Below, one piece after another: positions 14,984 through 64,000 of a stretch of 64,000 bases of DNA (the stretch's first letter is position 1; each line of letters opens with the position of its first letter). The stretch covers positions 310,001-374,000 of the forward strand of contig OZ237773.1 in assembly GCA_965178125.1 (NCBI GenBank), read 5' to 3'. This DNA is from Bilabrum cf. latius. Its lineage: Eukaryota. The notes under the pieces were generated by a model. The model was not told where the DNA came from. It saw nothing but the letters and a program-made list of their open reading frames with translations, and ran no database searches. A program made the translations under genes and the position numbers.

Positions 14984-16818
<1,835 letters not shown>

Positions 16819-40500: not shown

Positions 40501-43103
40501 AGAGGGACGGTCTCCGCGGGATGTCAGATGGCAGTAGGCGTGCTGGAGGCGAGCGGGCAGGTGTGGGCGGAGGGTTGGACGGTATTGAGGCCAGATCGAA
40601 GTCCGTGGCGGGGGCCCTGCGTGTGTGGCTGGACGGCGACGGTCGGGAGGTGGTTGAGCTCGCGTGGAGGATGCACGAGAGTGAAGGGGATGGACGGGAT
40701 TCTGACAGGCTGATTGGCCAGCAGCAGCAGCAGCAACTTGGCGAGGTGGGGCAGGATAGCGAGAATGAGGCTCTCGATGAGAGCGAACCAACAGGGCAGG
40801 GCAGGCTGGTTGAGTCCATCAAAGGGGGTTGGTCGATTGCGAGAGGGAGGCAGCTGTCGGACCCGGGGGGCGCAGGGGATCCCTCGAATAGCACCAATGC
40901 TACGAGCAACGCAACAGCAACTGCATCGTCCCCCAGCGTATTCGGCAGCCCAAGCAACACCTCGACTCCAAGTATCAGCAGCAGCCCAAGCAACACCTCG
41001 ACTCCGAGTATCAGCAGCAGCCCAAGCAACACCTCGACTCCGAGTATCAGCAGCAGCCCAAGCAACACCTCGACTCCGAGTATCAGCAGCAGCCCAAGCA
41101 ACACCTCGACTCCGAGTATCAGCAGCAGCCCAAGCAACACCTCGACTCCAAGTATCAGCAGCAGCCCAAGCAACACCTCGACTCCGAGTAGCAGCAGCAG
41201 CCCAAGCAACACCTCAGCTCCGAGTAGCAGCAGCAGCCCAAGCAACACCTCAGCTCCGAGTATCAGCAGCAGCCCCAGTACCAGCCCGACTCCGAGTAGC
41301 AGCAGCAGCCCAAGCACCAGCCCGACTCCTAGCGTATCGGCCAGCACATCCCCCAACCTAACCAGCGTAACGCGCTCCCCGGCCCCGGCCTCACCGCCCC
41401 CCAGCGCCTCCCGAACGCCCGTGCCCGCTGTGGAGGAAGAGCCGTGCGAGGCACTGCGATGGGCGGGCGAGTCCACCGGTGGATTGCCACGGGGCGGCGG
41501 AGCGAGCACGGCGATGGCCCCCCTGCAAGGCGGGCCGCTCGCATTCGTGGGTGCCCACGCATTCGCCGGCTCACTGCTGAACATGACCCAGTACCGCGCG
41601 TGCGGGGCCGCTGCCAAGCATGGCAGGGATGGCCTCGCTGCAGAGGGTCTGCGGCTGGTGGCGCGGTCCTGCGCGGCCGTGAACGTGAGCAAGGCGATCG
41701 CCGACGAGTAGGCACCCGCTGTGGAGGGCAAGCCGGCGGTTGCACGACTGGCCATCGCCGACCGGGACACGTGCGTGCTGTACGACATCAAGCCCAGTGG
41801 GAGGCTGGCGGGCCCAAGGCGTCTGCTTCCAGAGCACCCCGCCTGCGTGGAGGTGCTGGGACCTTCCCCAGAGGAGGGCGGGAGCACCGATCTGCCTTTC
41901 CCTGCTGGGTCTTCCGGGGAGGGGGCTGGCGATGGCGATGGCGATGACGATGGTGGTAGCAGTGGCATTGGCGAGTCACCCATCCCGTCTCCCAGCGTGG
42001 CCCCCGTGGATCCCAGCAGCAGCACCCCGGCCAAGGCATCTCACTTGCCCGCCCCTTCGTCGTCGCCTTCAAACGACCCAGCGGCAGCTGTTTCGCCCGT
42101 GGCCTCCAGCAGCCCGGAGCCTGACGATTACGCCGAGAAGGATGACGACGGCACAGCTGCGCCCAGTCCCACGGGGCACGCAAGCACGGGGACTGGCAAT
42201 GGGGACGAGCCGACCGGCATGTCGGCCTCGAGCTGGCTTCTTTTGGTAGGCGCGGTGACCGTCGTGGGAGCCATCGGGTATCTAGCAAAGACCAGCGGCA
42301 TGTTGGGAGGTGGTGGTGGGGAGTGGGAGAGAGTGGGGGAAGGCCAGGGGGCCAGAGGGGTGGGCAGCGGAAGCGGCAATGGCCGAGGAGGCGGCGGGAG
42401 CAGGGGTGGTCAAAGGGGCGGCGGGAGCAGGGCCAGGGCACAGCTGGACGGAGACGGCATCGTGGCGGGTGAGCTGAGCGAGGGAGAGGCTGGGGATGTC
42501 GAGATGACGAGTGCGGGCGCTGGGTCTCGGGGGGGCGGTGAGGTCATGGTGAGGACAGCGGCTGTGGGTGAGGCCGACAGCGACGGATTCGAGTTCGACG
42601 ACTGGGGCACAGAGGAGGACGAGGAGGGCGGCGGCGGTGGTGGTGGAGGGGGTCAGGGTGTGACGAGCGCGAATGGTGGTGCTAGCAACGGTGTGGCGAG
42701 TGCACTTGCGGCGCCTGCGACCGGCCGCGCAGACCAGGAGGACGGTTACGACGTGTGGGACATGGAGATCGCCATGGGGGACGAGGAACGTTCGTCCATG
42801 GTTCGCTCGTCGGAGGGTGGCCGGGGCAGCACCTCCGGGGGCAGCGGGGCGCCGCGTGGGTCGGACTTTGACTACGCTCGCACGGCCATGGAGGCGGGCG
42901 GCACGCGGGAGACACCGAGGAACGGGCGCGGGGCCGGACATGCTACTAGTGTGGGCGGCAGGGGCGGTGCGGGTGCGGGTGCAGGATCAGGTGGCGGTAG
43001 GAGCGGCGGTGGCGCGGGCCGTGGCATCGTGCTGCCCATGGTAAGCTTCAAGGAGTCTTTCCCCAGGGATGGCTCGGAGCCTAGGCGCGGCAATGAGCTC
43101 TGA
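37503..43103 (+). CDS. M14 zinc carboxypeptidase, predicted type I membrane protein (about 1866 aa)
   Basis: Signal peptide MFVLLVSILLVLLA; motifs HARE, RKNR, GVDINRNY, LHAYG and YSPEVG; Ser/Thr/Pro repeats; TM segment WLLLVGAVTVVGAIGYLA. One frame with TAGs at 39408, 39780, 40173, 40341 and 41709; ends TGA followed by TAA. Confidence 0.87.
40947..41342. repeat. 36-bp coding tandem repeat, about 11 copies (SPSNTSTPSISS)
   Basis: Head-to-tail agcccaagcaacacctcgactccgagtatcagcagc units with no spacers; nine copies carry an N-T-S sequon. Confidence 0.93.
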
Positions 43104-43344
43104 TAAGAGCAGCGGCAGCGGTGCTTGGTTGGCAGCAGCGAAGCAGTCATTGCGGAGTTATGTTGGATCGTTGTATCCACGCTTGTAAAATAGAGTTTGT
43201 TCAGCTACAATTCCGCCAGCCACCACTGGCAGGCCCCGCGGGCAACTAGTCTGTATTTTGGTTTGTAGCGTTGTATTTACTAGTTCGTTCGTTCCCGTAT
43301 CCTGGAGCATATGAGGCCAACCCACAAGGTACACATTAAATAAA

Positions 43345-43781: not shown

Positions 43782-44234
43782 ATATGTGGTCATTTTCTTC
43801 TTTTCTTTCATTCACATCACGATCTAGCTGCGCTCACGTCTACTATGTGTCATGACCAGTGCCGTTACAGCACAGAATCCTTCGGTACCTTCCGGTGTGC
43901 CGTCGAACCAAGATGCATCAGCTCCACTGGCAATGGCAGTCATTTGCCGCGCATTTCGCGATGCCATTGCGGCATCTCTTCGGTATAAGGTACTCAACCG
44001 AGCATTTCCAAGCAACCATGGGCTCAGCGCGTGGGTTGCAATCAGCGTAGGTCGTTGGCCCGACACTACCGAGTGGTCGGCCCATTGGGCCACTGCATGT
44101 TCTGGCACCCTGTGGTACATTTTTTTATAGAGTTGTACAGTTCATTGATGAAGCGAAGCAGCATGTTTGGACCATAAGCAGTCGTCAAAGTGTCAACCTC
44201 CGACGTGAATCTGCCAGTAGTCCTTGGCAACGAC

Positions 44235-46234
44235 TCATTCCTCCTGGTCTCCTGATGCAATTGATCCAGAGCTCAGGTCGGCAGCCCCCGACGCAGTCGA
44301 TTCCCTCGACCGGGATCGGGACCCTGATTGGTTAGGCTCGGAATCGATGTCAGTGTCGGAGTGGACCACGGCATCTTGACGCTGCAGCGGAATCCTTGGA
44401 GGCTGTGATGGCTATGCCTGCTGCCGTTGACCAGCGCCAGCAGCCTCCCAGGGGTCTGCGCCATCGCTCATGTCTGACGAGTCGGAATGTCTCCTTGGCC
44501 CACCTTGAGGCGGGTGGTGACGAGGCGCTGGGCCAGGTGCGGTGTTTTTCTTGGCCTTTGGGGGTCCTGCTTTCCCTCGGTGCGTTGCGCGTTCAGGCAG
44601 AATCCCTGTATACGGATACGGTCTCCGTTGCGGTTGTGCGACATCACGGGCACGCTGACCACCACTGCCACTGCCTCCATGCCTCTGGCGGCGAACCTGT
44701 TGTGTTGGCGTGACTGAGCCGGTTTGGGCACTTCCGGCATATCCTTGGCTTGGTAAAAGTGGTTGAAGTTCTTGCTGCGCCTGATCGGCATGCGAGATGG
44801 GAATCGGTGCGAACATGCTTGCACCTCCAGCCATGGATGGATCAGGTTGCAGCGGCTGCTGCGCTGGGGCAGATCTACGAGCCCCTCGGACTTTAGGGAC
44901 TCGATGGGGTTGCTTGTCCTGCGCGGGACTCTGGGCTGAGCTGGATGTTAGAGCTCTGATTGGACTGTTACGTCCAAGCACCAGTTCTTCGCTCCCAGAA
45001 CTGGACACGCTCTGTTCGTCCTCACTCGCAGTTGGGTCGGTATCGACGAGATGCCCCTTCACTACCGCTGCTTGGTCTTTTTGGGCGGCATCGGCACCAC
45101 CATCGACGGGACGGCCCTAAACGACCGCTGCTTCGCCGCTCTGTGTCCCGCCTCCGACGGCCCGAAGGGTGTCTTGGTCAACATCGCTGCTGGCATCGAG
45201 GCCTAGAGCAAGGGCAGGATCCAGGTCGGGTGCGCCTTCATCGGCAGGAGGAGCATACAGGGCTCTCGGCAAGGGGTGATCAATCAGACGGGGTGGAAGC
45301 TTTGATGTCGCGATCCTCTCGAGAAGCCACTCAGCAAGCGCCTGGAACTGCACAAAAGCTGCGTGTGCGGCTGGTCCCGACTCGATGCTCTGGGGGCCCA
45401 TGGCACCTCCTGCCGCACCTCCTGTCGCTGCACCTCCTGCTGTTGTACTGCTTGAAGATGCTCCGCCTGGAGCTGTGGCGACCACCGATCCGGATCTATC
45501 CAGCTTGGCAAGCGAGCTGGCTAGGACAGAACGCACAGCCGCCAGGACGCGCGATTGGTCGTCTTCGTCGACAGGGGAATGCTTCAGCGCCAGCAGGGTT
45601 GCGTACGGATCAAGATCAGTAACACCCACGACTTTTGCCCAGTCGATTGGAGCAGCGCCTGGCTCCCTCGCTAGCTAGTGGGAAAGATCCGCCGCGGCAT
45701 CGAGCTCTTCTGCAACGCGGCATAGTTTTGCGTGATCCTTGGACGCGTGGTTGTCGTCTTCGTCCGGCTTTGTCTTGAGAATAGATGCTGTGATAAATTG
45801 CAGGAAGTCTGCAGCATCTGACCACTCGATCTGGCTATTTGTCTCTGCGGCTTCAAAGTACAGCTGGTTGATGCGGATTGCAGCCGCAGCCGGCAAATCC
45901 CCAGATTTGGCTGTGAACGTATGCACAGGTGTAAATGTATATCTAATATTAGATCAAATGAATGAGTCCATGCATCATACTTCAATTCTTGGGGTAAAAC
46001 AGGCTCACGTTTGACAGGCGGTCCCGTGGTTCTCAGGAAGTTGAGCGCCTCGTTCAGCGATCCATGTCGCAGAAATCCGAGCTCCTTCTACCCATCAGGC
46101 TTTGTTAGCATGAACTGTGTATCGTCAACCATCTCAAGGCGAGGCTCAGATGCGGTGTTGGGTACCATCTACCCAGTTGTTGCCACGGGCGGGTCCATTC
46201 TGGAGCCGCGAAGGCTGCTTTCCTGCGTGTTCAT
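44235..46234 (-). CDS. Unknown protein; start uncertain
   Basis: Phase-1 intron 46008-45911 (GTGAG..ACAG); TAGs at 46169, 46088, 45675, 45117 and 44412; ends TGA 44235. Confidence 0.62.
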
Positions 46235-46450
46235 CTTAACGATGGAAGCTTCTGATACAGCACTATACACTACCAGCATGGTAGCAACCCCTTGCATTGG
46301 CAAACACGGCACTGCTGAGTATGTAAGAGCTGGATTGGCCGTTTCCAGGAACTCGACACGAACCTTCGTTTTCAACCGGTGGGTTCGTTCGGCATAGATA
46401 CGTCTGGCAGCATGAATGAGGAAAATTGTGATGTATTCACGTTAGGTCCT

Positions 46451-47782
46451 ATGAAATTGTTTCAGTGGATTGTAGATGGTTGGGTAAGCCATGTGGATGC
46501 TTCCAGGTTGTTTCGGAGGCCGATGGGGCGGCTCGTGGCCACTGTGGCGGTCTAGAAACCCTACGTACTGCCTGGAATAGCGAGGTACCCTAGAGGTCGT
46601 CTCGTATGGCCGCGACACTTTAAGTGCCGCGCAGACCCGAGACCTTGGACTGATTTTTTGGGACAGTACAGGGCGTACATCCTTGCAGAGAGGTTGACGG
46701 ACTGGTCGAGCGGCATAATTCTCGACTTACTGAAATCGGGAAGCCCCGCAGAATCTACTGACAAGCTAACCAGGTCGATGTTCTAGGAAGCACTTGTGCC
46801 GTCCGTAAGAGAACTTGACATCGCTGCTTATCGAATTCATGTCTTTTCTCGGCAATGGTCTGGCGTTTCCAATGTATCGCAACTGTACCGCAGCATATAA
46901 ATGACAAGTACTTCAAGTGTACTGTGCATCGATGCATTAAAAATGACTTGCCAGACCACCTGGAGAGTATCGTTTTCTACGCCAAAGCCCGACCCCGGTG
47001 CCAATTCATGGAAGTAAGCTCGATTACTAGTTGAATCTGCAGAAGTCACGCGTTCAACGAGCTTGACCGCTCAAAAATTCAAACACACTTTTGCGCAGAC
47101 AGGATTATTGACTGATATTCTCAACGAAATTGGGTATCGCATCAGTGTGACTAAAAATCAACTTTTGTGGAGACAAAGTTTTGTTGCCCTTCTTCACGCC
47201 GGCCTCCCAATTAACCCAGACTATTTCAAAGATTGGGATTACCGGAAATATGACAAGTCGTCTGTATTCCATCGGACTGGACTGCGATAGGAAGACCGGC
47301 CTCTTGGATTGCACCTCAACGCGGAAACCTGGCTGCGGGCTATGTTCGAGCGGCTGCCCGCAAGAAGACTCAAGGGGATGCAATACTACAACCCATTTCG
47401 TAGAAGAATGCGGCACATGGTCCATTGGCGCAGGGCAGTAGATACCCGTCGGGACGCTGGCATGGTGTTTCGAGCAGCGAGTGAGGGCAGGCCACTGGAG
47501 CTGGCCAGGCGGCTCAGGTTGGGCAAGCTGGCAGGCGGGCACCACCGGCCGGGCAGCCTCAGGGCAGGTGCAGGCTTCAATGCGCTCACTGCGGCGTGTG
47601 TAGGGGGGCACGGGGACTGCGTGCGAGTGCTCGCAAGAGGTTTGATCGATGCCGATGAGTACCTCAAGGGCAGGGACGCCGCAGGCAGGGGGTGCTGGGA
47701 GGTGGCAAAAGGGGACGCAGTGTGTGCTCTGCAGGAGATCAGGGAGGATCCTTGGATGCTGTGCGAGGACTTACCTGGTTGA
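46451..47782 (+). CDS. Unknown protein with a C-terminal ankyrin-like repeat; start uncertain
   Basis: Phase-0 introns 46805-46893 and 47014-47098 (GTAAG..GCAG); TAGs at 46553, 46784 and 47288; ankyrin-like GFNALTAACVGGHGDCVRVL; ends TGA. Confidence 0.6.
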
Positions 47783-47911
47783 CACCAACTACTCTTAATG
47801 TATAGAATGCACGTATCTCTGAACCATTGCTTAGGAAAGTTACTTGGCGTGGCACATATGGCTGCATCACCCGCAATGCCACCATCTCGGTGAATGTTGG
47901 AGCCTGGCGAC

Positions 47912-50900
47912 TCATTTGGGTGGTGGCCCAGGCGGCGGGCCTCGTGGCGGAGGCCCCCTGCCCCCTGCCCGTGGGGGACCAGGCGGGGGCGGCCCACCAC
48001 CCCCTGTCGCCCCTGGTGCCCCGGGCGGGGGTCTTGCCGCCCTTGGGGGACCGGGACCCGGCCGGCCCCCTGGCGGAGCCCCCCTGCCCCCTGCCCGTGG
48101 CGGCGGGACGAGTCCTGGTCCTGAGCTTGGAGGGGGGGGTGGGTGCGCCTCTGGCACGGGCGGTCCGGGGGGCGGACCCCTTGGCGGGGGTGCGTTTCCC
48201 GGGGGTGGACCACGGGGCGGATCCCTTGGCGGGGGCGCGTTTCCGGGGGGTGGACCACGGGGCGGATCCCTTGGCGGGGGCGCGTTTCCGGGGGGTGGAC
48301 CACGGGGCGGACCCCCGGGTGGGGGCAGCCGACCCCCAGGGGAGGGCCCTGGCGGGGGCGGCCTCGCTCCAACCAGGGCCTTGGGAGGCCCATTCGGCTA
48401 CCCAGCCCCAGCCCCAGGCCCGGCACCAGGACCAGGTGGAGGCGGAGGCGGCGATATGCTGGATTTGGCAGGGTTGGAGGCAGGGGCTGGTGGTGCACCC
48501 GGGGCACTGGGGGGTGGCGGTCTCCCGCGCCCCAGTCTGGCCCTACCCCTGCCAGCGGGTCTATTCGCTTCTGACTGCCCCACAACCGCCTGCTCCTTCC
48601 GCTTCTCCTGCTCTGCCTGTTTCTTGGCTTCCTGCTGCTCCCTCCACGCCTTCATCGCACCGCTGCCAGTCCGGCTCCGGGTCCGTCCCCTAGACCGGAT
48701 CCCCTCCATGGCGGCCTCTTCGTCCTACTAGCCGCCCTGTGGCTGTGGCTGTGCCAGGGGCTGGGGCTGTGCCGGCGGAGGCGGGGGTGATTTCAGTGCC
48801 TGCGAGGGTGGCTTCGCTGGCTGGCCCTTGCTCGGCGGGGGGGGCGGCGAGGGCGAGGACTTGGGCGGCTTGGGACCCTTGGCATGGGGCTTGGATCGCG
48901 GTGGGCCCATCCCGGGCGGGGCCTGTGCCAGTGCCGGTTGCTGCTCCCTTGCAGGCGGCGCGGGGCCCATACCTCTGCCCATGCCTCTGCCAGCCACTAC
49001 ATCCCCATCCCCATCCCCATCCCCCTCTTGTCCTCCCACTGCCGCCTGCTCGTCCTCGACCTAGTCGCCCGCATCCCCGCTCTTGCTCTCAGAGGCCCCT
49101 GCGCCCCTCGGAGCAGATGGCGGCTCCCTCGGTCTGAGCCTGGAGGCAGTCGGAGTCGGGGGCGGCGGCGCACCCTATCCCTATCCCTCGCCGGCATGAT
49201 CATCATCGGGAGCACGTGGTACACGGGGCTTGGGTGTTGCCATCCCTGGTGGCGGGGTGGCGCCCCCTCCTACTGCCCCACCGTAGTCGTCATCGTCGTT
49301 CTCCATGGCACCGCCGGTGTCGAGGCTGCCTGCCGCGCCGGGCCCAAGCGCTGCTCTGGCCCTCTTCTCCTCTTCCTTCTTCTTCTTGGCTGCGAGCTTG
49401 GCCGCTTTCCTGGCCTTCTTGGCTGCCTTTTCGGCTTTCTTGGCTGCCTTCTTCTCGGCCTCTTTCCTCTTGGTCTCTGCCTTCTTGCGCTCCTTCTCTG
49501 CTTTCTCCAGGTCCGCGTTGTACTTGCCTACCGTAGATTTCATCGTCTCCACGAAGTTGCACCACTGAGGGAAGAACTTCTCCGGTTTCTGGTCGTCCTC
49601 CTCCACCTCGCCCATGTACTTGCACGTCTTCTGAAACGCCCCGACCATGTTGTCGAACCGCTGCTGCACTGCGTCTGCCCGTCTCCTTGCGTCTTCGCAA
49701 AAGGCCCCCAGCGCCCGGATGAACGTCTCGTCACCCTTCTCTCTCGCCTTTTCCAGGGTCTTGTTGAGCGTGTCGGCGCTCTTCGCGATGGCCTTGACGC
49801 CCATCTCGGGCTTGTCCATGGTGGCTCCTTTGCAGTCGAAGGTCCTGGGGAACTTCGAGGTGATGTCCAGCAGGTGGGGCCGCTTGCGAGCCAGCGCCTC
49901 CACGATGTACCGCAGGGCGGTTTTCTTGGTGTCCTTGGCCGTCTTGGTGTCTGCGATGGCCTGCAGCCCGGATAGCTTGATCCCTTTGGCTCCCGCTTTC
50001 TTGGTGCCCTTGTGCAAGATCTCGCTGAAGGGCAGGATCACGCCCAGGAGAAGCTCCTTGAGCTCGGGGTTCTCGAACTCTTCGCACGCATCCGCGATCT
50101 GCTTGATGGCCGCTATGGCCTCGTCTTCCTGCTCCTCGAAGTTCTCGCTGATGAGCATGCACTGCAGTCTGTCGGCGAGCAGTGGCACGTCCTTGATCGC
50201 GTACACGAACTGCTCGGGCATATCCATGCGGTCGAACTCCTCCGGCTTGTGCTCGTTGGCCTTGGCCAGGTGCGCCGCCTCTGGCACGTTGGCGGCCAGC
50301 ACGGCGATGCCCTCGCCGCCTCCCAGGCCCTCCAGGTCCATGTCCTGGATCATCTCGGCCGTCTGCTTGAACCCGATCTTCTTGAACCCGTTGGCTGCGA
50401 ATGAGAGGGCCTGCTTGTACTTGCCGTCGAAGTCCAGGAACTTGACTACGCTCGGCTTGGCCTTCTTCTTCTTCTTTTTGTCACCCTTGCCTCCCTTGCC
50501 CCCCTTCTTGCCCTTCTTTTTCTTCTTCTTCTGCGGTGGCATGAACATGTCCTTGATGTCCGGGAACAGCTCCTTCATCGCCTTCCGGTCGTTCCTGATC
50601 TTCTTGGTGTCGTGCCAGATGGTACCCTCGGGGGACTTGATGGCGGCGAAGTGGATCTGGCGCATCTTGGGGCCGGCCTTCTTCTTCTTGGGCTTCTCCG
50701 GCTTGTACCCCTTGGGCTTGCCCTTGGTGCGGTGCTCCGTCACGAACACGCCCAGTGCGAACGCCTTGGTGACATGCCTGTCCTGGGCCTGGATGCGGGC
50801 AGCGCGCATCAGCAGCCCAAGCGCGAAGGTCTTGCAGGCCCGGTTCCTCCGGATGCGGTGCCTCCAGCACATGAGCGGCAGGCCCAGGGCCATGAGCTTG

Positions 50901-53900
50901 TTGGCCCGGATCCTGAGCGTCTATTTCCTGACCGCCATGAGGCCGGCACCCACCACCATGAGCTTGGCAGCCATTTTCCTCCTCTGCCTCGCGCGGATCT
51001 GCTGCGCCACCATCCCCAGGAACATGAACTTTGCGGCGGAGCGGCCCTGTCTGCGCTTGGAGCCCAACGATTTGAAGAGGCCCATGGCCAGCAGCTTACC
51101 CCGCAGCATACCGAAGATGTCGTTGGCATTCATCATCACGGCCTTCAGCCGCCTGTTATTGGGGTTATCGATGGCCCGCGCGAGACCGGGCTGCGCGACG
51201 GCCTGTTCCCGGTCGCCCTCAGGGAGTAGGTCACCGTAGAAGCTCTTGCCCCGCTGGATGCGGCCCCTCCCCCTCCCCGCACCGTCTCCGCCGGGCCCAC
51301 CCTCCTCGTACTCGCCCCCGCCCGCGCCCGCACCGCTCGCTGCCCCGGTACCCGCCCGATGGCCTCCGCCACCGGTCTGCTGCCCGAAATTCTCCGGGAT
51401 CGGCTTGTCGGAGAAATATTTCCTCCGCTCCACCTCCTCCCTGAGCGCCTGTTTGGCCGCCTCTGCGTCGTCCAGCTGCTTCTGGTAGTCCCCCGCCAGC
51501 GCCTCTGCCTCCTCCGCCCTCCCCTCCGCTTCCTCCACCATGGCCTGCAGCTCGTCCTGCTCCACCTGCTCCCCGATGTTCGTCACGTCCTCTTCGGATA
51601 TGCCCGACATGCCCAGGGCCGTGGACACGTCGTACTTGACCCGGCTCACCAGCTCGAACAGCGCTCTCCGGGCCACCTGCACCTCAGGGTGGTCAGAGGC
51701 CTCCCCCTCCTGGGACTTGGCGATCGTCCACACCGCGTCCCGCAGTCCGTCCCTCAGCTGTTTGAGGTCGGCCACGGGCATCTGGCTCGCCGCCTCGGCG
51801 CCTGGATCCACTGCCACCGGATTGCCCTCTCCGTCCACGCGACTCGCGCCCCCCGCCGCCTGGGCCGCCGCTCTGTTCTCCGCCAGGGTGGCCAGAGTGG
51901 CCATGGATCCGGCCAGCTCCGTGGCAACGTACTTGAGGGCCCCCATCGCCTCATCCGCTGTGTCGAAGTGCGTCGCGTGGCCCTCCAGCTCCTCCTCTTC
52001 CACGCCCAAATCGGGGTAGTCCAGGTCGCCCAGCACGGCCAGCTGCCCGCCCGCGCGGCTGGCACGGCCGGACCCAGACCGGGGAGTGCCTGGCCCTGCA
52101 TCCGTCCCCGTGCGGGACCGTCCTCTTGACCTCCGGCTTGGCATCCTGCGGAACGACATGGACCCCCGGGGGGTCCCCCCCGATCCCCCAGGGGTGTCCC
52201 CATCTCCTGCAGGGGTGCCCCACCCTTCCCCGTCGGGACCCCCTTCGGAGTCCTCTCCGCTCCAGGGGCTGCCGGGCCTGACCCCACGCACCCCTGGAGG
52301 GGGACCGCTGCCGTTACCCCCGTGTGGGGTATAATACCCTGGCCCCGGCCCCGCTCCGATCCCGTCACCTTCGGTGCCCCATTCTCGTCCCCCGCTGGCC
52401 GCACCACCAGGCCCATATCCCTCACCGCCTACCCCGTAACCTTCAGCGCCCCCAGGCCCGTACCCCAGGTCCCCCCCTACACCCGCACCACCACCACCGC
52501 CGCCCCCGCCGAACATGCTCTCCGCCGCCATCCGAGCGATGTCATACCCTGCAGCCTCCTGCTCCGCCCCAAGAGGAGCATCCATGCCCCCACCGAACCG
52601 CAAACCAGCTCTAGCACCATCGCCCCCGCCGGGTCCATACCCTCCCCCTGCAGCACCTCCATCATCGCCAGGCCCCCAGCCCGGCCCGTCCTGCACGCCC
52701 ATATCGGGACCACTGCCAGGCCCCATGCCTTGTCCTCTTCCTCCTTCTCTTCCTCTATCTTCACTTTCCCCTACTTCCTGATTCGCCCCCATAGGACCGT
52801 ACCCTTGCTCGTACCCCCCCGCGGTTGCTTGCCCTCGTCCTTGCCCCTGTACTTGCCATTGCTACCCCATGCCCTGATCCGACCAGCCTTGGCCTTCTTG
52901 ACCCCCCTGAGGCCCGCCCCGCACCCCACCATGCTGCGGGGAAACCCCGTATGGTGCATTGTCCCCGCTCCCATACTACCCACCGTCCTCACTTTCTCCA
53001 AGCCCCTCGGGACCGACACCCGGGCCGGGGCCAGCGCCGGCGCCTGCCGCTGCACGGCCCCCGTATGCTCCATCTGGGCCCCCAGGCCCGCCCACCACGT
53101 CGCTCTGCGAAGAATACTGGTCAAACCCGCCAAATCCACCGGTGGATTCGACCTGCCCTGCTCCGACGGCACCGCTGCCGGGCTCCCCACCGTCAGCAAC
53201 GTCTCTGCTACTGCCAGCCCCACTAGCCGATCCACCACCCGCCTGTGCCTATCTGAGCTTTGCGTGCAGCACCATTTCCCTCTGTTTGGCCTGTACCTGC
53301 ATGCGCTGCATGGCCTGTGCAGTGGCCATGTAATGCTGCTGCACATGCTGCAGCATAGCTGCCTGTTGCTGGGCGGCTGCTGCGTATGCCGCCATTTGCT
53401 GCTACATGGCGGCAGCACCCACGCCCCCGCCCATGCCACCCATGCCCATGCTTGCACCCATGGGCCCGGCACCCGTGTCGTCATCAAAATCACCGTCGTC
53501 GCCCATGGGACCCATGCCGCCCATCCCCCCATCATCGTCATCGTAATCCCCATCGATCTCACCAGTACCGTCCATGTCAGGTCCATACCCACCACCGGCC
53601 TCCCCAAACATCGCACCGCCCATCCCGCTCCCGCCGTTGCTTAGGTCAGGACCCATCCCACCCGCGTACATGCCCATTCCCATGTTCATGCCCCCGCCAC
53701 CACCTCGTCGCCTGCCCCGCCCTCGACCTCCTCCGCCTCCTCCGCCAGACGAGTCGGAGTCGTCGCTGTCATCTTCATCGCTGTCCGAGTCATACGACTC
53801 GTCATCGTCGCTGCTGACGTCTGACCCAGACCCGGACCCGGAATCGGAATCTCGCCCAGAGCTGTCTTCCTCCGGACCCTCCTGCTCCTCCGAGCCCGAG

Positions 53901-55327
53901 CCCCGCTTGGACTCCTGCCAGCCCCGTGCACCGCCCCTTGCCGCCCCTCTTGCGCCTGCGCGCCTCAAGGACCTGCTTCTTCCTCTACTTCTTCCGCCTG
54001 TCCCACTCCTGGTGCCACCGCCACCGCCACCGCCACGGTACCCTTCCTCTTCGTCGCTCGAGCCCTCCGCCCCTGTGCCAAAGACGATTCCACCACCACC
54101 ACCACTGTTCCCTGCATTGGGACCCCCGCCCCCCGCACGGGGACTGCCCGAGCCCATGGCCGCCGAGTCCCCAAGGGCCGCTGCAAGCCCACTCAGGGAA
54201 GACGACGATCCGGCGCCGCGCATTGCGGAACCGGTCGGTGTGCCAGAGGGCAGGGTGTGCTGGTGCTGGTCCTGGGCCGATGCAGATGCAGACGCCCCCG
54301 CGCTGCCGACCACCGGCGGGGGCAGGCTCGGGGGCCGCGGCGCGAACTTTTTCTTGCCGTCGGGACCTACGAGCCCCGCGTCACCGCTCGGCTGCCCCTG
54401 GTCATGCCCCTGGCCTAGATTTCGTCGCCCACCATCCTCTGGTTGGTCTGACCCAGGGGCCTGCGGCAGGGGTTTTAGGACGGGCTTCCTTCCTTCCGCC
54501 TTCGCCCTGGCCCCTTCCGCCATGCGGGCCGCTTGCACGGTCTGCATATGGTCCTCCCCGAGCTCAGCCCGCCTGATCCTGTATGCCGACTGGAACTTGG
54601 CCGCCGCATCTGCTGGCTGCTTGAGCCGCAGGAACAGCTTGCCTTGCTCGTAGTCCATGCTGGCAATTTCGGTTCTGGAGCCTGTTCCACTGCTCCTTAG
54701 GGAATCCCTAGCGTGCTCGAGCAGCTCGATCGCGACCTCCAGCCCCGCGCCAGGAGCCGCAGCCGCGAGGGTGCCTGCAAACCGGTAGGTCTCGGTGAGC
54801 GTGGGGTCCCCCTGCTAGAGGCACGCCTCTCGAATGTCCAGCGCCCGCCGCATGTATCCGAACGCCTCTCCCGCCCTGCCCATCTTTAGCTCGCAGCTGC
54901 ACGCCCGCACCCACAGCTCGGCTGCGTCTGGCTGGTCCCGGCCGAACTCGTCCTCGACGTGCTCTGCGTACGTACGGTACACTTCTAGCGCTTTCTAAAG
55001 CTGCGGAGGTTGCAGCTCTTCTTCGCAAGCGTATGCGCAGTGCCCGTACACTGCCGAGTTCTCGCGAAATCGAGGCGACGGGTCCTCGCGCACCAACCGG
55101 GCTGCCCTATGAAAGAACCACGCCGAGGCCGCTGCATCACCTTCCAGCTGCCATGCATGGGCAGCAAGAATCAATATTTGCAAGTGCCTTTTTCTCTGGA
55201 ATCCGCTGTACGTGATTAACGCGCTGCGAAGTGATGCCATGCCGTACGCCACCGCGCCGAACTCGTCGCCGTTGCGAAAGCTGCGGATTGCCTCTTTGCG
55301 CAGTTCTTTTTCTTCCATAGCAAGCAA
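47912..55327 (-). CDS. Formin (FH2 domain) with N-terminal TPR-like repeats and C-terminal Pro-rich region, about 2470 aa; a short extra 5' exon near 55430-55475 is possible
   Basis: Seven ORF-track fragments share one frame, with 13 TAGs (54995, 54815, 53402, 53249, 52976, 52862, 50921, 49181, 49175, 49061, 48728, 48725, 48398), ending TGA 47912. FH2 motifs KMRQIHF..GTIW, MPEQFV, GAKGIKLSGLQAIADTK and KYMGE..PEKFF. TPR-like RRALDIREACL and AYRIRRAELGEDHMQT. Confidence 0.85.
48171..48316. repeat. 45-bp tandem repeat x3 in the formin Pro-rich tail (PRGPPPGNAPPPRDP)
   Basis: Units start at 48171, 48216 and 48261, with a partial unit at 48306. Confidence 0.88.
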
Positions 55328-55956
55328 ATCTTGTGGGTCTGCGCGATGTGTAGCATTCAGAAAATTGGGACGTTGCGGACGTGCAAAGCTTTCTCAGTTT
55401 GGCAGGACATTTCGAGTCCAGCCACTCACTTCCGTCGAAAATGCCATACCGACACTCTTCTCGATGTGTTTGCATCCAGTCTTCAAACTAGGCGTCCGCA
55501 CTGCGGAAGAAACGTTGCAAGTCGTGCACAAAGAGGGGATACTTTCAAGCAGGGTGGCTTGCTGCACCGGAATCGATTGCCGGCATTCCAAATTGCTAAC
55601 CTCGCGTAGCCGACCGACTCGCAAAGCCTGCACAGTCGTGTGGCTGCCCGGCCTGTCACCGGGCAGACCATGCCAGGCGGCGCTGGGGCCACCATGTTTT
55701 GCGCAACACTCTGCCCCAACTGTCGAAACACTGAATTATGCCGGAATGGCACGCAACTTGCTTGCGGACGCCGCGACCGCGACAGGTCACAGTGCTAAAT
55801 ACGCGACCACATGGCGAAAAGGGATTAGACTGCTTGCATGATTAGACTGCTTGCACGATTCAATCGTGCCACTGCATCGAAACATGTTGTGCGCATCCAA
55901 GACTGCGAGTCTGGCGGGCGCGAGCCGCAGGCCCTGAACAGGCCCCGAGTCCAAGG

Positions 55957-58900
55957 TCAACCCACCGAGTCATGGTGAACTGCGCTGGCTCGAAACAGGG
56001 ACAGCCACTGCCTCCGTGCCCTGCCTTCTGCCTTCTAAAAGGCCCTCCAGCGCTTGATCACTCGCTCCCATGCCATCTTCCTGGTGAGAGCCGCTTCATA
56101 CGACCAGGTGAAATCCCGCAGGTCCTCAGAGATGCCCCACCTGCCCATGTTCAAGGCACCCAACTCGCCCTCTCCCGCCCCCTCACCTTCGCCATCACTC
56201 TCCAGATCCTCCCAACTAGCCATTGCGCCTCGCAGGATCTCATCCCAGTCCCCATCGCTGTCCGGCTCCCTGAAATCCGGATCTGCTGCCCCCTGCAAAC
56301 TAGTGTAGAAAAGCTATCCCTCCCCGTCCAGCCGCTCGCACTCACGCATCAATACCCTCAGTGCATCGTGCGCGCCCCCGCACACCATGGCGGCAATCGG
56401 ATACTCCCCATCCTTCCAGCGGCTGCCTGTCCATGCCCCGCCGTTCCTACCGGAGCCAACTTCCTCTGGACTCACGTTGCACCCGCTCTCCAGCCCAGTG
56501 GCCATGCCATCAATGAGGACGGCGAGGGGCAGCACTGCCACGGCCCCCTCTTGCGGTGCACCGTCATCCATCGTTGCAACGTCCAGGAGATCCGCTCTCG
56601 CCAGATCCTCGACACTACTCGCTGCGACCACCTCTCGCTTGAACCGATCCAGTGCATCGATGCAGAACTAAGCTGCATCCATCCCGGGGGTGTCTTCTGG
56701 AGCGCACAGAGAGGATGCATGATGGCTGGAAGGGGTGCCCCAAGCTGCTCGTGACAGTCTGGCGTGCCTCGGTGTGGCAACGCCCCGCTTTGCAAGGAGC
56801 TTGCCAAGCCACCACTGCCACTTCGGCACGCCCTCCACGACCTGCAGTGCCCTGCGCATGGCGATGGCAAGGTGCTCGGGTCCATCGGCGCCCTGCCTGA
56901 CCCAGTCCTGAAGAGGCTACAGCCTGTGCCACGCCTTGGTGCTGTATCTCTGGCCCTCGATCGGGCCACAGCTAGAGGATGCCCCTCCTTCAAACTACCT
57001 GTTGGACCCAGCCAGACTGTAGTCCACTATGGCTTTCACGAGGCATCGCCCGCCCGAGCTTGCTGCATCCTGCGTGCGCTTCTTGAGCATTTGGTGCTAG
57101 TCGGAGAATCGGCCCGTGAGTTCCAGGCTGAACGGCCGTGCGGGTCTCCCCATCGTCATATCCCGTTCTGCAAGTGCCTGCTCGTTGTCCCACTGCGATG
57201 CTAGCGTGCTCGTGTCGAACCACGCCTGGGCCATCTGAGGTGACTGGCTGCACGCGTGCGCGATGGTCGCAGATTCCAGCCATCCGCAGGTGCACTCCTT
57301 GGGCATCATTCTGTCGATGTCGGGGACCTGAATGCGACGGAGGTTCGGAGACAACCATATGGCCCCGAACACCGAGCCGTGCATCTGACCCTTCTTCCAG
57401 TCGCGGTCCAGATCCACCTCAGGCCTGGCGTCAGGCGAGTCGCCACGGCGGAATACAGGCGCGAAATCAACGTGCAGTTCTCGGAGGCGAGCATGCATGG
57501 GAATAGCACGGCATACAGCTTTGGCTAGGGATGAAAGCTTTCCCGAATACGGCCCCGGGTTGTGCTCCTAGATCCACAGGCTGATCAGGCTATCGTTCCA
57601 CTGGAGCATCGCGGACACGTCGGACTGCAGGCCCTTGGGAAGGTCCCGTAGCTCAATGTCGGTCACAGATTGGGTCAGCACCAACCCGCGAAGCATGGCT
57701 GCTGCGCAGTCCTTGCCCGCCTCGGGGTCCCTCAGGTGGAATACCTTGAGCCTCTTGGAGCGAGCGAGCGCCGCTCCCACTGCCTTGGCTGCTGCGAGGG
57801 GCCGCCGCGTTTTCGAGATCGTGTCGCGCAAGTAGAGTTTCTGCACGGGAAAGTTGTGCTCTATCATACCGAACAGCAGGTGAGCGAATGGGCTGTTCAT
57901 CTTCGTACTGTTTATGTTGAGCAGATGCCCGGCGCTCCCTTTGCTGCTCGGCTGCGGCGGAAGAATCGGCTCGCGGACTCGCGAAGGAAGCTCAAAGCTG
58001 CAGCCATCTATGAACACATCAAGGCGCTTGGTACCGCCCAATAGCGTTCCGAAAAAGTCAGCTAGGTGATTGCTTCGCCAAATGCACCGCACCATGTCAA
58101 TTTTTGCTACCGACTTGGACTGTGCAATTGCTCTTGCTAAGCCCTCCTCGGGATCCGCACAGACAATATCACAATTGAGCAGGTTCAGCTTGCTGACCCT
58201 GCGGCTCTTGGCGAGCAGGCTCGCAAATTGTGCCAGAACTTTTTGATCGTCGCGCTGTACTTGAATGGACAACGTACCAATTGAGACCCGCTTCCTTGCA
58301 GCCTAGCGCAGCATACGACATGCTGCTGTACATGATACTATACCCTGCGTGCACATAATCCTTGACGCGTTGGTGACAGTTCTGGCATCGATGGAGGCGG
58401 GGTTTTCAAGCAGCGGCATACCAATTGCAAGGTTTACGTGCTTACAACAACACCAGGCATACCAAGTGCAGACATAATGCTGGTATTGAGACGTTCGGGG
58501 CTTGAACGGCCCGAGGTTTCTATCCCAGGCTATCGAAAGCGTTTCAAAAAAGTGCCGCTCGCTTTCCCTTCAAGTTGGTTCCGGTTTACGGGGATCGGCG
58601 CAGCCTCTCGGCAATAACCGGATCTGTAGTCCGTTCCCAAAAGGTCAGCAGTGGTTCCACTAAATCTCTTGCCAATCGAAGCGAGCCTATGTCTATGGAC
58701 CACCACATCTCGTAGCCGTCCTCTGTGTCACTCCTGGGCATGAAGAACCTGTGCCGCCTGTTACATACACGGCGGTCTGTAGTGGCTGAACAGCCCGAAC
58801 GGGGCGGGCTCGTGGTTGCCAACCCTGGCCATGTAGAGCACTCGCACCACCACCGACTAGATGCGGCTCAGAAACGTGTCTACGTCGATGCCAACATAGT

Positions 58901-59156
58901 CGTGCAGGACGTCTGCGAGAGGAGGGGGCAAGGAGAGAAACAGGTCAGCAAGGGGCTTGCCAGTGGGAAGGTTCGATGGGTGCAGGGAACAAGTAGGTTG
59001 GGTAGCAGGGGGCTGGTAGCTAGGCAGGCACGAGCCATCCTGGATCTTGTCATCATTGATTACGATGAAAGCTACGTGCGGCACGGCATGGCCAGGTGGG
59101 GAGGAGTGCCACTGCCCTCCTCGAGGGGCAATGTGGGGAGGAGAGGTGCCAGTCAT
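55957..59156 (-). CDS. RNI-like leucine-rich-repeat protein, possible N-terminal F-box-like motif; 5' exon structure unresolved
   Basis: Frame open from about 58569 to TGA 55957 except for TAG (58303, 57568, 57097, 56995, 56917, 56668, 56314, 56035). LRR-like VSKLNLLNCDI, VQKLYLRD and LKVFHLRD. Upstream LFLSLPPPLADVLHDYV is only weakly F-box-like. Confidence 0.55.
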
Positions 59157-59543
59157 ACGCGAAACCTCCGACTTTTCTCGTCCACCTCTATTTTCTCTCT
59201 CTCACATATTATATTATCTCTCTCCCGCTGCACTGCGCGTAGACCAGGATCTCGCCACCCGTCTGCGCGTGCCGCCCCATGTCTCCTTTCCATTGAACAT
59301 TCGGCTCAAATTAGTAGTAATTTTTCAATTTCACTTTTTTTCTTCTTGATGGTTTTAACACGCAACAAAGCACCTCATTTGCTCCGCCGGAGCCGCCGTG
59401 CCGCTCGTGAAGCGCGTGTCGCCGGCAGCATCCAGCCCTTCTGCTTTGTATACAACAGAGTTTTGTAAGTTTGTCGACCACAGTCGCCAAATTCAACAGA
59501 AGCTGTTGTATTACCTATTTGAAACCTCGAACTTGTGATAAAC

Positions 59544-62321
59544 ATGCGTTCATTGGCCCTTGGCGTGGTTGTAGCAGCCTTGAGCGGCGGTTCGCTCGCT
59601 CATGGCGACGGCGGCACATGCCGCCACGACGAGTTCGTTGACAGGATATTAGACCACCATATCGAAGACATGAGGCTCAGGAAGGCAGGAGCATCCGCAG
59701 GAGGGTCTGCTGAATAGTTGCCGGTCGGAAAGGTTCCTCTGTCCAAGATTGGGAAACCGCTTGCAGGAGCACCGACTACGCACGCGCACGACATCCTCTC
59801 CTCCTCCGGAAAAGGTTTGCACATGCTCAACATGTACAGTCCCGCACGGGACGGGGCTTCTGGTCCCGGTGGCATCCGTTTGGCGTCCGAAGTAGACCAA
59901 ACGTCCGGGCAATGGCGGCCGCTTCGCCTCAAGCCAATCTTCTTGGATTCCCTAGATGCCCAGTCATCCAAGTTTTTGAACGAAGAAGTGCTGCCCACCG
60001 TGATTTCCCGAGTCGGTGAGATGCTGTCGGTCCCGGTGCGTAGCGAGCCGCTGTTCGCGCACCGTCGCTGCGAGCGCTTCTGGACCAACCAGCAGCCATG
60101 GAGGTGCAACGAGCTGGAAGACGCGAGCGAGAACACGTGCGGGAGCACCTCGGAAGATGCGACGCCGGTGCGCCTCAACGCCTCGTGGTTCGGCGCCGAC
60201 GAGTACTACGCGGCTCCCACTGGCTCGGCCACAACCATCCCAGCGGGCGTGGGCCTGGCCGACGCGGACGTTGGGCTGATCGTCACGGCGCGCACGGTGA
60301 GCCCCTGCCAGGCCTCGACCAGTGCCGCTGGAGGCACCCGCGCTTTCGCTTCTTTCTGCCAGAGCGACCCCGCCACCGACAGGCCTACGTTCGGGCGCGC
60401 CAACGTGTGCCCCGCCGAGCTCCCCGCCCCCGCCTCGGGGACGGGGGCCCAGGCCACGTGGCACCAGACGGACATCGATGGCTGGATCAAGACCCTCACG
60501 CACGAGACCTTCCACGTGCTGGGCCTCAGCTCCACCTCCTACGCGCTGTACAGGGACAGAGAGACGGGGAACCCCCTGACGCCCCGCAGCGAGGACCTGC
60601 CCTCCCGCCCTGCAGATTCGCAGGAGATCAAGTACCAGTGCCAGGGGTCGGAGAGGACCTTTTACGTGGCTTCCACCAACACCGTGAACCTGTACTCCGA
60701 GCGGGGCATGGATTGCACCCAGTTCTCCGAGGTCATCACCGAGGGCATGTTCAACTGCGTGCAGAGGGTCGTGGTCGAGCCAGCCCAGGAATCCGCCAAG
60801 TCCTTCTTCGGCTGTGAAAGCATCCCCGGAATCGAGCTCGAGAACCAGGACACCACCCCGTGCGTGATCCACCCCAGCCACACGGAATCAAGGGTGGCTC
60901 GCACGGACCTAATGAACGCGGTCAAGCGGGAGCACAGGGACGTCACCGCAGCGTCTCTGTCCATCCTAGACTCATCGGGCTGGTATACCGCCAACTACTC
61001 GGCGCTGAGCCCCATGCTCTACAACCGCGACTTCGGGTTCCAGGCGGGGTGCGACTTCGCCGTGGGGAACAAGTGCCTGCAGCCGGGCAACCCCCCCACG
61101 GTGGCCACCAGCACGGGGGCGGCGGGCAACCCCCTCACCCCGCACTACTGCACGGAAAACTCGGGCGATGGGCTCTTCTGCACGCTGGACCGCAAGTCCA
61201 TCGGCAAGTGCTTTCTAGAGCGCCAGTTCGGGTCAGACCTCCCCGAGCAGTACCGGTACTTCACCAGCAACGCCAGGCTGGGCGGCTACATCCCCGCCGA
61301 GGCTGACTACTGCCCCATCATCGAGTCGTTCACCCAGGCGGCGCAGGAGGAGGGTGGAGACACCACTACCACGTCGTGCACGGACCCCCGCAACCTGGAT
61401 TCTCTCGCCGGGTCAGAGAACGTCAGAGGCATGACCATGGGCGCGGGATCCGTGTGCCTGGACACGTCGCTCGAGAAGGACGGCTGGAGCGGGGGCCTGC
61501 CCTTGGGCTGCTACGAAGTAACGTGCACTTCAAGCCCCGTCAAGGTCGTGATCTCTGTGCCGAGCACGTCTGGGTCCGGGTTCGTGTCCGCTGAGTGCGA
61601 GCAAGAGGGCGACGACGTGACCTTCACGGGATACAGCGGGGGCGTTACGTGCCCCAGTCCATCGGAGGTGTGCCAGGAATAGCTGGGCGTGCGGCCAGGC
61701 CCGGGGGCCGGGACCGTTGCCGCTGTGACGAGTGACGTGGATGTGTTGTACTCGTCAGGCACGGCCACGGTGTCGGTGGAGAGGATCGGCGGTTCCACAG
61801 CCATCTCGATGCTGGTCCGCACTGTGGCTGCCGACTCGGCCCAGGCGGCCGCGGCGGGGATCCAGTCCACGTACACGGTGGGTGGACTGACCTCCGCAGT
61901 GGCTGTGGAGGGCACTGACTACAACAACGCCACGCAGGTGGTGACCTGGGCCGAGTCCGAGTCCGGCTCCAAGGAGGTGGATATCACCCTCCCGAGCGGC
62001 GGGGGCCCTGTGGCCGCTGGCGTGGACGTGCTTGTGCTGGGCGTGGTGCTGGAGCAGGCCCCCGGTGCACCCGAGGAGAACCAGCCCGAGGTCGCAGCTG
62101 GTCGCCAGGGCACTCGGGTGCTGCTCTTCAACGTGCTGCCGTCCCCCTCTCCCGTGCCCGTGCCGTCCGCTTCCCCAAGTCCCTCGTCAGCGGCTGGGGG
62201 CTCCGGGGAAGATGACGACAGCGGTGCACAGACTGGTGCGCTGGCGGTTGGCGCGGCCATGGCATGTGCCGTGGGGGCTGTAGCTGCCCTGATGGCTGGT
62301 GCACAGGCGGGTAGGGACTAA
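59544..62321 (+). CDS. Leishmanolysin/GP63-like M8 zinc metalloprotease with Calx-beta-like domain and GPI-type tail (about 925 aa)
   Basis: Signal peptide, propeptide CRHDE, RPTFGRANVCP, HETFHVLG (HExxH), SHTESR..DLM, DSSGWY.ANYS and ADYCP. TAGs at 59715 and 61680. Hydrophobic C-terminus, then TAA 62319. Confidence 0.9.
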
Positions 62322-62634
62322 GGATGCTAGGATTGGATTGAAGCTGGCTCGCTGGGGATGGAAGCTTGCAGTACCTTGAGCCGTTTTTTTGGTTTTCGGG
62401 GTGTGGCTTTGTTCTCTATTGTAGTGATGTGTTCGACGTTTTGCCAGGCGTGTTGGGTGGTTTGATTGGCTGTGGGTGCGCAGGCTTGTGCTGTGCCCGT
62501 TGCAGAGCAGTGCTCGAGCTCGAGCAGATTAGATCTATCCTATGGATTCATGTCACCCCGACTTGAAAAAAATGCAGTCAACCTATCGAGTGTGAAATTT
62601 ACCGGATGATTGACTCCGTTGTGCAGTGCACATT

Positions 62635-64000
62635 TCAAGTAGAGCTCGACCCCGTGCGCCACCCTCCCAAGGCAGCCTGCAATGCGACCACCCTGCAGAC
62701 ATCATGGTAGAGGCACATCCCACCCGTGGCATCATACACCACGCAGCACCCGCCGAGGGGAGGCGCTGCGAATCCTCCATGAACCTCTTGGTCTCCAGCC
62801 ACCTCCTCACCCTTACCTCCATCTCCAGAAGCTTCACCAGCAGCGGCTGCTCCCGATGCAACTTTACCCTCAACACTAGTAACCCGAAGGTCATCACCAT
62901 CGTCACTATCATCACCGTCGACCCCATCTCCCATCCACCCGATCGGTACCGCCCCCTGCAACCCCCTTGGAGCCACGAGTCCGTTGCACCCCTGCTGCCC
63001 GTGGTCAATGCGGAGCAGAGGCACACCGCAGTGCAATGCACCATCCGGGTCCGTGTCACGATACGCACCGAGCACTCCTCGCTGGCCAGCAACCCCCGCC
63101 GCCTGTTCGCCTTTAACTTTAACGCCAACAGGTGAGGCATCTTCGTGTTCTCCACTTTGGGCTGACGCATCGGCACCTCCACCTTGCTCGGTTCCATCCT
63201 TTGCAACAGCACCTCCACCTTGCTCGCTTCCATCCTTTGCACCGGCACCTGGCTCATCTCCCACCTGAACCTCCTCGCCACCTTCAAGCATTTCTTCTTC
63301 TACCGCCGCCTCGACTTCCCCCCTCACCACCAGCTTGCCGTCAATCCCGAGCGTGCACTGCGCCCGCACCACCTCCAACGGACTCTCCCGGCCGAGCGAT
63401 GCAAGGGCTTCCAGCGCCGAAACACCGCCGCCTGTGAGCTTAACTGCGTCGCTGCCTGGTTCGCCGCCTGTACCCTCCTCCGCCTCCTAGTCCTACAACG
63501 CAAGCTCCCCGGCACGTTCGCCCGCACCCACTGCACGCGCAGCAATCGCCCCAAAATCCACTGGGCCCAGGTACACCGCCCCGCAGCATGCTCCTGGGTG
63601 CCCCCCCGCGAGGCGACGGAGGGGCTCAACGGATACTTCCGGGCAGTAGGCCCCCACCTCCTCCTCTGCCCCCTCGCTTGTGCCCCCGCTGCCCCCTGCG
63701 CCCAGGGACACTGACAGTTCCGCGGCGGTGCCATCGCCGGCAGCCACGAGCACCGTGCACGCCTCCCTGCACTCGTCATCCTCCGCACCCCCTACGAGTG
63801 CCACCGAATGCGGAAGCGGCGGATTCAGCACGCTCGTGCCTGCGCACAGCTCCTCGGCGTGTCCAGTGGCTCGGCCGATGTCTGCACCCCCCAGCTTGCG
63901 AAGAGAACCCCCCGCCGCAGCAACTCGGAGCGGGTACTCGTGCGACGAGTGTTCCGCACCACCGTGCAGTGCAGCTCCCTTCAGACCCCAGCACTCGATC
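62635..64000 (-). CDS. 3' part of an unknown protein (possibly WD40-like) that starts beyond the window end
   Basis: Frame open from the window end to TGA 62635 with TAGs at 63493 and 63487. The GH-containing beta-rich segments are only suggestive of WD40. Confidence 0.55.

Follow-up and report, generated by a model that had tools for sequence, protein, structure and literature searches.

A change of meaning almost always affects the codons UAA and UAG jointly. Each lineage that splits them tests how the release factor eRF1 can give up UAG and retain UAA, and also if a tRNA with a CUA anticodon is sufficient by itself. We describe here a 64-kb window of contig OZ237773.1 (assembly GCA_965178125.1, Bilabrum cf. 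latius; positions 310,001 to 374,000 of the forward strand) and, within it, a leishmanolysin-like protease gene that carries in-frame TAG codons and ends at TAA. By "window" we mean this whole stretch of DNA, and all coordinates count from its first letter. Codon counts, gene ends, an orthologue from a second species, and transcript evidence together lead us to a code in which UAG is a sense codon, most likely for glutamine, and UAA and UGA are the only terminators, with UGA preferred; these are the assignments of NCBI translation table 15. We give this reading a probability of about 0.8.

Several codes that treat UAG and UAA differently have been described. In Iotanema spirale (Fornicata), the excerpts of Panek et al. 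(2017; PMC5304391) used here give UAG as glutamine, UAA and UGA as stops, and UAA as the predominant terminator, and they describe a T32G change in eRF1. Reassignment of UAG alone to glutamine is also recorded, in the corresponding excerpts of McGowan et al. (2024; PMC11687900), for Protocruzia tuzeti and two phyllopharyngean ciliate lineages. The same two sources, to the same extent, report UAG as leucine in the rhizarian exLh and as serine in Scotinosphaera, both of which keep UAA as a stop (PMC11687900, PMC5304391). The code in which both UAA and UAG specify glutamine (table 6) is listed in the part of PMC11687900 drawn on here for Hexamita, Streblomastix, ulvophytes, and an aphelid as well. 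An earlier sequence-only reading of the window had named Iotanema and a rhizarian with UAG as leucine as its examples of UAG-only changes; both stand, and on the accounts just cited its list was incomplete, having left out Protocruzia tuzeti, the two phyllopharyngean lineages, and Scotinosphaera.

In-frame TAG and the absence of internal TAA and TGA

The window has a GC content of ~61% and, when read with the standard code, yields only broken open reading frames (ORFs). With TAG taken as sense, ORFs of up to 2468 codons appear that hold neither TGA nor TAA, and Pfam domains become joined across TAG. Seventeen unspliced gene models (15,708 codons) contain 96 TAG, 513 CAG, and 152 CAA codons, and not one TAA or TGA. 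The 18 models that include introns taken from RNA contigs (16,385 codons) contain 103 TAG, 519 CAG, and 160 CAA, with TAA and TGA again at zero. These counts reproduce the observation from which the sequence-only reading started, namely about 100 internal TAG and no TAA in genes that use CAA freely.

The ORFs behind the models had originally been cut at TAA as a stop, and the scan was rerun with TGA as the sole stop. TAA was then confined to the last 31–48 codons of three genes (those with ends at 62319, 14984, and 30562) and to stretches upstream of the first ATG of four models (g6, paralog C, g11, and g12), and these upstream stretches score as non-coding. The zero count of internal TAA is therefore not an artefact of ORF cutting. 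Elsewhere in the window the trinucleotide is common enough. It makes up ~1.5% of the in-frame codons just outside coding regions (8/545 upstream of starts and, by hand count, 13/800 downstream of stops), and within the 17 models the two off frames contain 38 and 33 copies of it. The corresponding off-frame counts for TGA are 184 and 287, against zero in frame.

An ordinary ciliate-type code, with UAA and UAG both read as glutamine, would account for these counts if UAA were rare through GC bias and the three proteins that end at TAA ran on to the next TGA. A GC bias does exist, with GC3 in the gene models at 0.6–0.8. Codons ending in A nevertheless take 24%–26% of their own pairs for CAA, GAA, and AAA, and 15% for TTA, and at such usage this code predicts 18–36 internal TAA where none is seen (P(0) of 7e-8 to 3e-14). 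The ~1.5% share of TAA in the flanks likewise speaks against it, and so do the gene ends described below.

Within Pfam-domain segments of five genes we counted two TAG against 50 CAG plus CAA codons, compared with 28 against 220 outside these segments, a difference that is not significant (Fisher p = 0.13). A scarcity of TAG in domains, if true genome-wide, would hint at UAG as a young or slightly costly glutamine codon.

Gene ends and the leishmanolysin-like protease

Stop usage was read from 21 gene ends, of which three are TAA and 18 are TGA (14 modelled genes and four smaller ones: PhyH, GST, FKBP, and 21202–22362). None of the 21 genes needs TAG as its end, and no orthologue-defined C terminus among them falls on TAG. 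The 18 TGA ends and the tandem TGA-TAA at 43101–43106, both listed in the sequence-only reading, were recovered here.

The protease gene, 925 codons long and closed by TAA, encodes a signal-like stretch at the N terminus, the zinc motif HETFH, and a hydrophobic tail at the C terminus. Its M8 domain (PF01457) occupies residues 414–713, with HETFH as the HExxH that the family requires; a PDB sequence search with the protease matched no chain. Positions 62220–62321 are codons 893–926 of the plus-strand ORF and read SGAQTGALAVGAAMACAVGAVAALMAGAQAGRD followed by TAA at 62319–62321. Judged from its residues, the tail looks like a glycosylphosphatidylinositol signal or a tail anchor.

An exhaustive HMMER search with the protease returned 1535 proteins at E ≤ 0.001. 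The closest fragments were P0129 (58% identical, spanning codon 713), P0130 (66%), and P0140 (88%); P0129 and P0130 share their contigs, and the last residues of P0140 align to the last residues of the protease. A metagenome scan with P0129 led to two loci that are identical over their overlap, L001 (5210 nt) and L002. The same kind of scan with the window's own protease as query gave no confirmed locus, and scans of genome contigs and of viral contigs with alignment A2 gave no match. A protein search for same-code relatives with the Syf1 fragment of the window returned only three distant matches, probably because poly-Ser words swamped the candidates.

L001 carries an orthologue of the protease in a single frame (1529–4261, 910 codons, 56.4% identity) with four in-frame TAG and no TAA. 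In public protein sets this orthologue is cut into pieces exactly at its TAG codons. Its TGA stop occupies the alignment column of the window's TAA at 62319, and this match provides the strongest support for regarding that TAA as a true stop. The orthologue also shows that the code is common to a second, fairly distant species. Since at least this one further species (L001) has the trait, the trait belongs to a lineage and not to a single strain. On the minus strand of L001, 4658–5209 encodes the C terminus of an orthologue of the window's M14 carboxypeptidase-like gene, with one in-frame TAG and a TGA end. This gene is convergent with the protease gene and adjoins it, whereas the same two genes lie 16 kb apart in the window, so gene order differs between the two. 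The other end of the same locus (3–578, minus strand) codes for a multi-pass membrane protein and includes a single in-frame TAG.

We scored the codons beyond each TAA end for coding character, on a scale where windows inside genes reach a median of 0.32 and their 5% quantile lies at -0.12. The 47 codons that separate the TAA at 62319 from the following in-frame TGA come out at -0.25, under that quantile. Beyond the TAA of paralog C the extension holds two further TAA and scores -0.98, which makes it clearly non-coding. The end at 30562 had been flagged as ambiguous in the sequence-only reading, and that caveat stands, because the score of the codons that follow it is borderline (-0.05). The Gln-rich character of this last stretch is a second point that could be claimed for the code with UAA and UAG both as glutamine. 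The TGA of L001 in the very column of TAA 62319 and the score of the paralog C extension argue against that code, as does the count of internal conserved TAA, the mark of table 6, at 0/16,385 codons in the window and 0/910 in the L001 orthologue. We regard it as very improbable. Within the window, then, the claim that UAA stays a stop while UAG is sense is supported by the counts, by the gene ends, and by the end of the L001 orthologue.

The gene ends also bear on context-dependent codes of the Condylostoma or Blastocrithidia type, under which UAG would be sense inside genes and would terminate some of them near their 3' ends. A TAG does fall among the final 10 codons of two genes (g12 and paralog C), and a sample of only 21 ends leaves some room for such a code. 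By our own arithmetic from the TAG density, however, chance alone would give ~1.1 TAG this late, against the two seen; all 21 genes end at TGA or TAA, and neither of these occurs in frame. The 3' untranslated region (UTR) of the protease gene, at ~270 nt, differs as well from the very short UTRs typical of ambiguous codes. We consider a context-dependent code quite unlikely here.

Transcript evidence

Contigs from three sequencing runs (X6, X7, and X8) of two studies cover parts of the window. The guessed type of these runs was RNA, though X6 was flagged as "probably DNA," and we took all three as transcript-derived solely because their contigs skip GT..AG introns. Six short introns of this kind are skipped, so the contigs come from spliced RNA. 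They span the protease gene from ~59439 to 62591 with zero differing letters, and 27 of the 32 TAG codons in 44001–64000 fall within them. In contigs bearing spliced junctions the TAG codons are identical to those in the DNA. Contigs with the same letters were found in four runs from three studies, and nowhere in the stretch compared is contig depth greater than over the leishmanolysin-like gene.

A further alternative is that the TAG codons are not translated at all, the genes being pseudogenes or the TAG being assembly errors or sites of mRNA editing. We found no point in support of this possibility, which is scarcely credible because the data already contradict it. The unchanged TAG in spliced contigs exclude editing, assembly error, and pseudogenes; the agreement of four runs from three studies, the contig depth over the protease gene, the ORFs that run for as many as 2468 codons with neither TGA nor TAA, and the recurrence of the same pattern in the second species (L001) all point the same way.

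All six introns (85–101 nt) are close to the 5' end of a gene that otherwise consists of one exon. With them included, the true starts of the formin gene, of gene 55957–58700, and of gene 44235–46310 lie upstream of the large exon's first ATG. At 62589–62645 the convergent transcripts of the protease gene and of its minus-strand neighbour stop within a few bases of each other, with contigs that end at 62589–62591 and contigs that begin at 62592 or 62645.

The amino acid assigned to UAG

The most direct evidence for glutamine comes from the two protease orthologues, in which TAG and CAG replace each other once in each direction at sites whose flanks are 12/12 and 11/12 identical. The partners of TAG at the remaining, less conserved protease sites are ATG, GAA, TCC, and GCC. 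The M14 orthologue contributes GAG, and a comparison of paralogs A and B contributes CAA, CAG, CAG, CAC, and TTG. Glutamine makes up five of the 12 close partners against a background of 4.1% (P = 8e-5). Summed BLOSUM62 scores over the 12 partners are 26 for glutamine and 14 for glutamate, and every other amino acid reaches at most 2 (Ser 1, His 0). When two distant comparisons are added, the sums become 31 for glutamine and 16 each for glutamate and histidine. TAG also occurs within glutamine runs (e.g., KQQQQK-TAG-QQQ), the base that follows it has the same spectrum as the base that follows CAG (p = 0.70), and the TAG of the theta-class GST-like gene aligns to the Q of "LAWQH" in human GSTT1.

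UAG might instead be sense with another meaning, the next candidates being glutamate, histidine, and leucine, with UAA and UGA still as stops. Codes with UAG as leucine or serine are known elsewhere, in the excerpts cited above, and among the partners listed here are two Glu codons (GAA and GAG), a His codon (CAC), and a Leu codon (TTG); a Syf1 column is rich in histidine, and GSTT2 has histidine at the aligned site. The exchange of TAG with CAG at both sites with conserved flanks, the BLOSUM62 sums, the TAG inside glutamine runs, and the lack of serine enrichment around TAG despite abundant serine runs all argue against a meaning other than glutamine, which we hold to be unlikely. Two specific candidates were tried and rejected. 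Serine, as in Scotinosphaera, is not enriched near TAG and has a BLOSUM62 sum of 1 against 26 for glutamine. Leucine, as in the rhizarian, sums to -16 on the same 12 partners by hand arithmetic and is not among the six top-scoring residues, and TAG exchanges with CAG at the conserved sites. The sample is small, and from these alignments histidine and glutamate each keep a small probability as the meaning of UAG; glutamine appears well favoured, yet short of proof.

Some observations weigh against UAG as glutamine with UAA as a stop. Seven of the 12 close partners are residues other than glutamine (Glu twice; Met, Ser, Ala, His, and Leu once each). The column of Syf1 codon 490 is histidine in 41/60 homologues and glutamine in none, and the GST TAG that meets glutamine in GSTT1 meets histidine in GSTT2. 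Residues around TAG rank glutamine first, but weakly. Outside support exists for only one of the three TAA ends, and the 30 Gln-rich codons after the TAA at 30562 sit on the border between coding and non-coding. The transcript of the protease gene ends at ~62590, past the next in-frame TGA at 62463, so its 3' end cannot separate a stop at TAA from read-through. The window holds no tRNA gene, and tRNA scans of the window and L001 came back empty. Finally, the DNA read amounts to 64 kb and one relative of 5.2 kb, and internal TAA or terminal TAG could occur elsewhere in the genome.

Gene content of the window

Pfam recognises a gene set (Table 1) that identifies the DNA as eukaryotic and nuclear, and the window is nuclear DNA of a compact, GC-rich, intron-poor eukaryote. 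In the M14 carboxypeptidase-like protein (1866 residues in total), the M14 domain is fused to a long region of Ser/Thr/Pro repeats (with units such as SSSPSNTSTPSI), to a hydrophobic segment, and to a tail rich in Gly. The formin has TPR-like repeats at its N terminus and, C-terminal to its FH2 domain (residues 1544–1925), a long proline-rich, FH1-like tract; in formins FH1 usually lies upstream of FH2. A lineage-specific paralog family has three members, possibly four, which share an N-terminal motif and a coiled-coil-like C-terminal region and have no Pfam match. Paralog C includes a poly-Ser run of ~60 residues. A protein search with gene 55957–58341 found no homologue.

Table 1. Features of the window, with TAG treated as sense (X6–X8, transcript contigs; L001, metagenomic locus with the orthologue; P0129 and P0140, protease fragments)
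Feature	Positions	Strand	Evidence and remarks
Leishmanolysin-like (Peptidase_M8) protease gene	59544-62321	+	Pfam PF01457, E 3.7e-32
In-frame TAG, codon 58	59715-59717	+	Unchanged in transcript contigs; L001 partner ATG
In-frame TAG, codon 713	61680-61682	+	Between M8 domain and 212 further conserved codons; L001 partner CAG, flanks 11/12 identical; Q in P0129
C-terminal tail coding	62220-62318	+	Small residues, ~22 hydrophobic residues, QAGRD at end; tail kept at very C terminus in L001 and P0140
TAA stop of protease	62319-62321	+	L001 TGA at same alignment column; P0140 (88% identical) ends at same place
3' UTR of protease	62322-62590	+	X6, X7, and X8 contigs end 62589-62591; ~270 nt
TAA stop of paralog C	14984-14986	-	31 codons to next in-frame TGA, two more TAA, score -0.98
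TAA ending 2263-codon gene (30562-37353)	30562-30564	-	Ambiguous; next 30 codons score -0.05
Syf1	2-2407	-	Pfam
Dihydrouridine synthase	6551-10009	+	Pfam
Theta-class GST-like gene, last exon	10165-10875	-	GST_N_2 and GST_C_2, both under Pfam cut-offs; one TAG (LDW-TAG-H)
M14 carboxypeptidase-like gene	37503-43103	+	Pfam; TGA-TAA tandem at 43101-43106
Formin (FH2), Pfam-recognised ORF	47912-55318	-	Pfam
Formin gene including two 5' introns	47912-55800	-	14 in-frame TAG, 0 TAA, TGA end
Smaller genes: PhyH, GST, FKBP			Also seen by Pfam
Paralog family	4188-5753	-	
Paralog family	17575-19926	-	
Paralog family (paralog C)	14984-16711	-	
Paralog family, possible member	21202-22362	-	
Intron	45911-46008	-	GT..AG
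Intron	46805-46893	+	GT..AG
Intron	47014-47098	+	GT..AG
Intron	55339-55429	-	GT..AG
Intron	55501-55600	-	GT..AG
Intron	58344-58444	-	GT..AG

Phylogenetic placement and origin

The best matches of the window's Syf1 in public collections are only 43%–45% identical. In an IQ-TREE phylogeny of 48 rows chosen from the 120 listed matches, the query falls in a group of eight unnamed sequences with 100% support, nested in a 98% group whose other branch consists of Phytophthora, a pelagophyte, and Mallomonas. A FastTree phylogeny of all 120 listed matches places the query in a 25-member clade (support 0.999) whose only named taxa are those three stramenopiles. The query branch is long (1.05), and the tree contains no rhizarian, bigyran, or metamonad names; for both reasons the placement is to be read as beside named stramenopiles and not as a firm assignment. 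Protein Atlas clusters for Syf1 are labelled as generic eukaryote only and carry no placement signal. One Syf1 relative (P0099) belongs to a 90% cluster with a single label from a dinoflagellate culture assembly, the others being environmental contigs; this label looks like a contaminant and was not used for placement.

The sequence-only reading had suggested an independent origin of the code, which is plausible. Stated in full, the proposal is that a code with UAG alone as glutamine, and with UAA and UGA kept, arose independently in a GC-rich, intron-poor protist lineage beside named stramenopiles and is common to at least two species ~56% identical in one orthologue; we put the chances of this at about even. 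A literature search at the level of titles and abstracts turned up no stramenopile with such a code, and no GC-rich protist of the present kind either. The code has precedents elsewhere; its presence in this lineage appears to be new. Should the lineage be a stramenopile one, the window would, as far as our search shows, provide that group's first reported change of a nuclear code.

Mechanism

The window holds no tRNA gene, Rfam scans of the window and of L001 gave no match, and eRF1 is not encoded in the window; we therefore infer the mechanism from other stop-to-sense codes. By analogy with these, a tRNA-Gln with anticodon CUA would decode UAG, no tRNA would read UAA, and eRF1 would no longer bind UAG yet would still recognise UAA and UGA. 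DNA and transcript data for this organism apparently come from several studies, which leaves its tRNA set, eRF1, and proteome open to direct examination. In practical terms, gene calling with the standard code fragments these genes.

Comparison with known codes

A table 6 code shares UAG as glutamine with the window and differs in UAA, which terminates here and is internal in 0/16,385 codons. The codes of exLh and Scotinosphaera resemble that of the window, in the accounts cited at the outset, in that UAG alone is reassigned; they differ in the amino acid, since the partners in the window sum to 26 for glutamine, 1 for serine, and -16 for leucine. Protocruzia tuzeti and the phyllopharyngean lineages, as far as their description in that source goes, have the same codon table as the window (table 15). 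In general, ciliate macronuclear DNA is AT-rich, and phyllopharyngeans have gene-sized chromosomes. The window does not resemble ciliate DNA: its contig is long and GC-rich, its genes are arranged both divergently and convergently and reach 7.5 kb, and its introns measure 85–101 nt.

Iotanema spirale, within the excerpts used, has the same assignments as the window. In both, UAG is a sense codon, for glutamine in Iotanema and most likely so in the window, and UAA and UGA do not occur inside genes; Iotanema ends no gene at UAG, and none of the 21 gene ends in the window needs it. The two differ in stop usage, UAA being the main terminator in Iotanema, while TGA ends 18/21 genes in the window. 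The window also has a GC content of 61%, and its Syf1 falls beside stramenopiles, in a tree without metamonad sequences. The window is useful as a GC-rich, UGA-preferring case to set against the UAA-preferring Iotanema.

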